Shown in pieces: positions 32,613 to 32,768 of a DNA stretch of 34,434 nucleotides. The notes under the pieces were generated by a model. The model was given only the letters and a program-made list of their open reading frames with translations. It was not told the origin of the DNA and made no database searches. Positions within the stretch are counted from its first letter, which is position 1; each line of letters starts with the position of its first letter. Source of the stretch: Escherichia coli (GTDB taxonomy: Bacteria > Pseudomonadota > Gammaproteobacteria > Enterobacterales > Enterobacteriaceae). The position numbers and the translations under genes were made by a program. The stretch lies in the NCBI RefSeq assembly GCF_003334385.1, contig NZ_QOWN01000046.1; one strand, written 5' to 3'.

Positions 32613-32768
32613 TTTTGATCCTTATGTATTGACTCGTAATATAAAGAGCACTATCTCCACCTACTATATACAAAAAAAAAAATCATTAGATAAATTAATA
32701 TCAATTTACTGGTACCCCCCCCCCCGGGAATCCTGGAGACTAAACACCCTGATAAAGAGGTAAACAGG

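Follow-up and report, generated by a model that had tools for sequence, protein, structure and literature searches.

A defective IS629 truncates the distal upstream DNA of an aap-like dispersin gene and leaves a putative activator-dependent promoter

We analysed a stretch of 34,434 nucleotides of Escherichia coli DNA (contig NZ_QOWN01000046.1 of assembly GCF_003334385.1; in the following 'the window'). A dispersin (Aap/CexE-family) gene is encoded on its minus strand (32244..32612), with the ATG at 32612 and the stop at 32244. The exact 122-aa product has a precomputed Pfam match to PF28204 (Dispersin), which places it in the family, and shares 44% identity with Aap of EAEC 042 (E = 3e-27). 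Its signal peptide ends in ...SLNTFA and is predicted to be cleaved in front of GGNNGWNADAV, the mature start. The counterpart in Aap reads ...SLNAFA followed by GGSGWNADNV, and in both proteins the predicted cleavage exposes an N-terminal glycine. Icke et al., writing in eLife in 2021, are said to have described this glycine, once the Sec signal is cleaved, as the acylation site for AatD. In a tblastn search of PLSDB (E <= 1e-3), the 40 records listed of 74 were Aap genes or belonged to a small set of unnamed homologues (52-55% identity), and none of these 40 was labelled CexE. An earlier note on this DNA had called the gene cexE-like. The family holds, as the PF28204 match demonstrates, while the implied closeness to CexE does not: Aap and CexE share a mutual identity of only 23.7% (PMC7478709), and since the product is nearer to Aap than to CexE, aap-like is the better name within the same family.

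Downstream of the dispersin gene, five co-oriented genes (27305..32147, minus strand) were assigned from open reading frames, Pfam/NCBIfam and gene order. They encode an FtsX-type permease, the proteins in aatA and aatB position, an ABC ATPase and an Lnt-like acyltransferase. This is the order of the aatPABCD export and acylation operon, and such linkage to aat genes is a further hallmark of the dispersin family. The gene in aatA position aligns to annotated TolC-family genes. With NCBIfam, only generic ABC and Lnt matches were obtained for the aat genes and none for the dispersin gene. At the nucleotide level the aat genes are ~67% identical to the versions of ETEC and EAEC. All open reading frames of the dispersin gene and the aat operon are intact in the window. 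Between the dispersin gene and aatP we detected a hairpin with a 12-bp stem followed by UUUU (32211..32237, minus strand; z-score -4.7 for a 121-nt stretch). It resembles a terminator or attenuator and could set the ratio of dispersin to aat transcripts.

On the upstream side, the dispersin gene is bordered by a defective IS629 copy that corresponds to canonical nt 8-1310 (32722..33944, plus strand), as determined by alignment to annotated IS629. Its identity to Stx-phage copies that bear the annotation 'IS3 family IS629' amounts to 97.7-98%, above the 95% that we required at the least; the reference copy comprises 1310 bp and is flanked by the target duplication TAA. Like the canonical element of Stx phages and O157:H7, the window copy has an intact orfA (32769..33095, plus strand, 108 aa), which is divergent from the dispersin gene. 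Because orfA reads away from it, the dispersin gene faces the left end of IS629. The right inverted repeat is whole as well and ends with ...GGGGCGGTTCA at 33944. Unlike the canonical element, however, the window copy carries an 80-bp deletion between CCACTG direct repeats (33097/33098) at the orfA/orfB overlap. This deletion follows closely on the frameshift site and removes the beginning of orfB, of which a remnant of 229 aa, compared to 295 aa at full length, was delimited by open reading frame and alignment (33213..33902, plus strand). The deletion also disrupts the ALIL frameshift pseudoknot of the IS3 family (33050..33135, plus strand), which scores 49.9 bits versus a gathering score of 50. 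An OrfAB fusion made by -1 frameshifting is not encoded by this copy.

The left tip differs from the canonical element too. The sequence TGAACCGCCCCGGG... of canonical IS629 is replaced by GGTAC, followed by a run of C and then GGG..., and colinearity begins only at canonical nt 8, which is position 32722 of the window. The terminal TGAACCG, that is, the outer 7 nt of the left inverted repeat with the TG tip, is gone, and part of the C-run (32715-32721) stands in its place. The copy thus lacks the two-ended 5'-TG...CA-3' structure. In addition, a 3-4 bp target-site duplication is absent, the left flank being ...GGTAC and the right flank CACTG.... Since the OrfAB transposase cannot be made and one functional end is missing, we regard this IS629 as an immobile fossil. 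DNA to the right of the element (33945-34265) was considered as displaced native upstream DNA and rejected: it has no similarity to the native upstream region of uninterrupted loci and shows patchy 80% matches to common plasmid DNA. The earlier note had described IS629 as inserted about 100 bp upstream of the gene. Our measurement of 103 bp and the identity to annotated IS629 confirm the element and its distance. Insertion, taken as a clean event, is contradicted by the missing TGAACCG, the lack of a target duplication and a right flank that is not native upstream DNA.

As defined by uninterrupted relatives, native sequence ends at 32714/32715 (GGTAC), and start codon and IS boundary are 103 bp apart (32613-32715). 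The junction itself is marked by a run of 11 C (32715..32725, plus strand), the length of which varies between 10 and 13 across isolates, even among otherwise identical plasmids (loci L003-L012 and L031). We found the exact window protein on at least 288 contigs and read the junction in the 10 assemblies returned. Together with the window and one metagenome contig, the same junction was present in 12 of the 12 sequences sampled with the window allele. These fall into two sub-lineages, one with the 80-bp deletion in IS629 and one with a full-length IS629 body, and both have the truncated left tip. Most contigs with the gene are 5-10 kb in size, which probably reflects short-read assemblies broken at IS copies on either side of the locus. 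Neither 5,426 complete E. coli genomes nor PLSDB contained the locus, apart from a gene remnant on two pAA plasmids. When metagenomes were scanned for the lineage-specific promoter without IS, as expected for a pre-insertion ancestor, the single match also had the IS junction. Because the junction is fixed in all sampled isolates, the rearrangement is old and not private to the window; we consider it an ordinary event, namely an old IS-mediated truncation of distal promoter DNA and not a clear promoter loss. The lineage is a widely disseminated plasmid lineage. Since its copies are essentially identical, the persistence of the open reading frames says little about selection after the insertion.

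To define the native upstream region, we used uninterrupted sister loci (L014-L023), which were reached by exact-protein look-ups of three variant proteins from the same 90% cluster. As a source of an orthologous locus, complete E. coli genomes and PLSDB were rejected, yielding only the promoter and the first ~135 bp of the gene on the two pAA plasmids. Nucleotide identity between the sister loci and the window is 93-96% across the dispersin and aat genes and 86-88% across the promoter. The upstream sequence that the sister loci have in common extends over at least 1.2 kb. Homology of the window to the sister loci stops ~101-103 bp from the ATG, and their native upstream DNA was found nowhere else in the window. 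Since the sister loci retain this shared DNA, at least 1.2 kb of native upstream sequence is missing in the window. In one of them (L014), ~535 bp of non-IS sequence precede the gene, with an IS110-family remnant beyond. At distances of 181-249 bp from the ATG, the lost DNA holds two to four motifs of the TATC type, each with 1-2 mismatches, and the outermost two are not found in the pAA remnants. A weak match between 25728-25795 of the window and the region upstream of the pAA remnants was considered as a candidate for the lost promoter DNA and rejected, since it represents a Tn3-family-like terminal repeat beside a second IS629 fragment.

The retained native 5' region (32613..32715, minus strand) comprises 103 bp with 25% G+C and was recognized by its homology to L014-L023 and the pAA remnants. 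In gene direction it reads GTACCAGTAAATTGATATTAATTTATCTAATGA-T11-GTATATAGTAGGTGGAGATAGTGCTCTTTATATTACGAGTCAATACATAAGGATCAAAA-ATG. It contains a candidate AggR/Rns-class activator box, ATTAATTTATC (32689..32699, minus strand), the TATC of which ends 76 nt before the ATG. This box matches WWWWWWWTATC, the published AggR-site consensus (PMC6392122), with 0 mismatches, and the motif search revealed an overlapping inverted copy, AAATTAATATC (32692-32702, plus strand). The box sits in a 21-nt block, ATTGATATTAATTTATCTAAT. Seven sequences were aligned, namely the window, one T12 allele, three of the uninterrupted loci and both pAA remnants; all are identical across this block and show 12-14% divergence elsewhere in the promoter. 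A T11 homopolymer (32672..32682, minus strand) lies in the spacer between the box and a -10-like element, TATATAGT (32663..32670, minus strand). Within the latter, TATATA lies 18 bp and TATAGT 20 bp downstream of TATC, compared to 19 bp and 21 bp in T12 alleles. A Shine-Dalgarno sequence, AAGGA (32619..32623, minus strand), is located 6 nt from the ATG and conserved in the alignment.

If TATAGT serves as -10, the box would span approximately -43 to -33 and the IS junction would lie at about -60 relative to the predicted start. Judged by sequence, the box is thus on the coding strand and directly precedes the -35 position, consistent with an AggR/Rns-class promoter, and the lack of a canonical -35 is expected for a promoter that depends on an activator. 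Counting both strands, WWWWWWWTATC occurs 13 times in the 34-kb window, while shuffles predict 3.8. A perfect box in the correct orientation within any given 100 bp is therefore uncommon, yet not extraordinary in AT-rich DNA. We scanned the gene strand for promoter-like hexamer pairs twice, the second time with relaxed settings. Only the native arrangement came up, and its poor -35 overlaps the box; a pair with 8 or more of 12 matches was found neither within the IS end nor spanning the junction. The window lineage carries three private 2-bp deletions in the promoter, which could represent promoter decay. A second zero-mismatch WWWWWWWTATC motif (TTTATTATATC, 28475-28485, minus strand) was observed in the aatC-aatD gap, ~100 nt upstream of the aatD start, where it may mark an internal activator-dependent promoter.

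In the sister loci we found the same 21-nt block around the activator box as in the window. They differ in that they lack the three 2-bp deletions and in that their T-tract is interrupted (TTTGTTTTTTT), whereas the tract of the window is a pure T11. Little native promoter would be left according to the earlier note, a view the alignment does not support, because the element most needed by this regulator class is kept and conserved, alongside the -10-like element and the Shine-Dalgarno sequence. The note had also expected activator sites in or beyond the stretch next to the gene. Distal candidates have indeed been lost, but the proximal box lies inside the retained 103 bp. As evidence against its own reading it had named an intact core promoter and activator site within the remaining 100 bp, along with unchanged expression; the comparison with uninterrupted promoters provides the sequence part of this, with box and -10-like element both intact in the remaining 103 bp.

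Work on related promoters bears on how much a truncation at this point would matter. AggR activates from one site located 21-23 bp upstream of the -10, nested deletions showed that no DNA beyond this functional site is needed, and a transplanted site was active at a spacing of 21-23 bp and inactive at 20 bp (PMC6392122). With Rns/CfaD, the largest contribution comes from the site that directly precedes the -35 and is centred at -34.5 to -40.5, while distal sites near -110 or -155 make a lesser contribution or none, although a distal site near -110 adds measurably at some Rns promoters (PMC5192496, PMC5554520, PMC7344145). The cexE promoter has one Rns site immediately upstream of the -35 and another further up (PMC7344145), positions that are qualitative and taken from later papers. 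We also looked for the activator itself. A tblastn search (E <= 1) of the 34-kb window and all fetched loci gave no AggR-like match, and NCBIfam gave no AraC-family match on the nine open reading frames scanned between 16.3 and 27.2 kb of the window. Across the window and the 10 kb around each uninterrupted locus, we found neither an AraC/AggR-family gene nor an Aar-type anti-activator; such genes could be located elsewhere in the genome. The cognate activator may thus be absent.

Our preferred reading is as follows. Beyond the first 103 bp in front of the start codon of a plasmid-borne dispersin gene, all native upstream DNA appears to have been replaced by an IS629 copy that is now dead. The proximal AggR/Rns-class box, the -10-like element and the ribosome-binding site would remain functional parts within the 103 bp, and transcription would still start from the native activator-dependent promoter instead of from the IS. 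The loss would concern distal upstream DNA, with possible auxiliary activator sites, and would at most modulate promoter strength or silencing. Since the retained 103 bp keeps box, -10-like element and ribosome-binding site, we consider continued use of the native promoter, with a loss that is at most modulatory, to be probable, if by no means certain. Binding of the box by an AraC-family activator, the transcription start site and persisting expression are predictions from the DNA sequence. Several observations count against the preferred reading. The box-to-TATAGT distance in the window is 20 bp, the spacing that was inactive in the AggR test promoter (PMC6392122), a regulator gene was found neither in the window nor within 10 kb of the uninterrupted loci, the promoter has its three private 2-bp deletions and candidate distal motifs are gone.

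The same observations would be explained if the loss of upstream activator sites had uncoupled the gene from its AraC-type regulon, leaving it silent or expressed at basal level only. This lineage has lost at least 1.2 kb of native upstream DNA along with the two to four distal motifs of the TATC type, and the spacing, the private deletions and a window devoid of a regulator gene all point in this direction. But the perfect proximal box and the -10-like element are kept and invariant, proximal sites suffice or dominate in the AggR/Rns class, and the lost motifs have 1-2 mismatches each, with the outermost two missing from the pAA remnants. We therefore regard uncoupling as possible but unlikely.

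Another effect of the truncation might be on silencing. CfaD/Rns-class promoters have been proposed to be silenced by H-NS and counter-silenced by their activator (PMC5554520). In native DNA, the region from -410 to -111 has 38-40% G+C, compared to 54% in the first 300 bp of the IS. A GC-rich IS629 in place of moderately AT-rich upstream DNA might thus weaken H-NS-type silencing and cause partial derepression, with activation kept via the proximal box. The IS-linked allele is also by far the commonest, with at least 288 contigs versus 11, 6 and 2 contigs read for the three uninterrupted-locus variants, but this abundance may just mirror plasmid spread, and the most AT-rich part (25% G+C) is the proximal region that was retained. 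Derepression of this kind seems quite unlikely to us.

The homopolymer in the spacer deserves separate consideration. A G-to-T change in the IS-linked lineage created the pure T tract where uninterrupted relatives have TTTGTTTTTTT. Of the 12 sequences sampled from the lineage, four have T11 and eight have T12, and each IS sub-lineage includes both variants. The variation of this tract and of the G/C-run at the junction may be sequencing or assembly noise or true slippage. As a single T moves the box-to-TATAGT distance between 20 and 21 bp, the tract could act as a slipped-strand switch, turning the dispersin gene, and by read-through aat, ON and OFF. Phase variation of this kind is not known for Aap/CexE loci, and we think such a switch improbable.

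The earlier note had contemplated an outward promoter from the IS. Constitutive transcription of the gene out of the left end of IS629, or from a hybrid promoter across the junction, is highly improbable: IS elements can provide outward or hybrid promoters and this one lies only ~60 bp from the predicted start, but neither its end nor the junction has a gene-strand hexamer pair with at least 8 of 12 matches, the end that faces the gene is the left one, 7 nt short and followed by a G/C homopolymer, and the outward -35 of the IS3-family circle-junction promoter is located in the right end.

Other observations concern the mobility of the module. The second IS629 of the window is partial (25804-26110, minus orientation), comprising ~307 bp of the 5' part with its left tip intact at 26110. 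With these two IS629 sequences, the dispersin-aat module is bracketed by inverted copies, both left ends pointing inward. In locus L008, a second IS629 downstream has an intact orfA and the start of a 295-aa orfB and runs off the locus end. With respect to repA, the module has the inverted orientation in L004 and L008. These features point to inversion mediated by IS629 or to mobility of the module in the manner of a composite transposon. A Tn3-family-like terminal inverted repeat (GGGGT.TGAAGGCCAA.GGA.CGAAAACGTACGTTAAG) was observed at 25731-25770 of the window and ~230-270 bp upstream of the remnant gene on the pAA plasmids, and a resolvase gene lies upstream of the uninterrupted locus L023. 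The module may formerly have been associated with a Tn3-family transposon.

The gene remnants are found on the pAA-type plasmids NZ_CP042885.1 (L001, 3980-4240) and NZ_LT719075.1 (L002, 3980-4230) and are ~90% identical to the window. They comprise the promoter with an identical activator box and the first ~135 bp (~45 codons) of the gene, upstream of and co-oriented with a type VI secretion cluster (tssB, tssC). An AggR-type promoter may thus have been recruited to drive the type VI secretion operon on pAA plasmids. On the plasmid NZ_CP024244.1 of ETEC O128:H27 (L030, 6210-7200), an IS3-family transposase remnant lies upstream of aatP, in the place that cexE usually takes, and no cexE open reading frame is present, which looks like another IS-associated rearrangement at the same type of locus. 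In addition, a gene for a SPATE-type serine-protease autotransporter (Peptidase_S6; L025/L026, 17778-20369) is located ~2.5 kb from uninterrupted loci, with colicin and microcin genes nearby. Given these neighbours, the variant dispersin/Aat module travels on virulence-type plasmids.

Dispersin/CexE and the Aat exporter are markers of virulence regulons in EAEC, ETEC and Citrobacter rodentium. The window holds a divergent variant (44% identity to Aap, ~67% in aat) that is present on hundreds of draft contigs though missing from the complete genomes searched. A promoter that is cut at approximately -60 and keeps its box guides the choice of fragments, that is, 103 bp versus the ~535-bp native upstream region. 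Adjacency of an IS alone is a poor ground for scoring such a locus as inactivated. Otherwise, we describe a routine IS-mediated rearrangement on a virulence-type plasmid, affecting a divergent member of a known virulence-associated system.

Among known systems, the aap promoter of EAEC 042 likewise has a WWWWWWWTATC box upstream of a weak -10 and no -35; it is AggR-dependent and a single proximal site is sufficient (PMC6392122). However, the aap box lies 134 bp from the ATG with a 22-bp spacing to the -10, while the box of the window lies 76-77 bp from the ATG with a spacing of 18-21 bp, and the two promoter sequences are not alignable. The aap gene of pAA2 has no aat gene within several kb, whereas the gene of the window is directly upstream of aatPABCD, and control of aap by AggR in EAEC 042 contrasts with a window that has no aggR. 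In gene arrangement, the closer counterpart is the Rns/CfaD-dependent cexE-aatPABCD locus of ETEC H10407, where, as in the window, the gene is immediately upstream of and co-oriented with aatPABCD. CexE of H10407 is, however, a far more distant protein than Aap from the window product, and in the window the distal upstream region is replaced by IS629.
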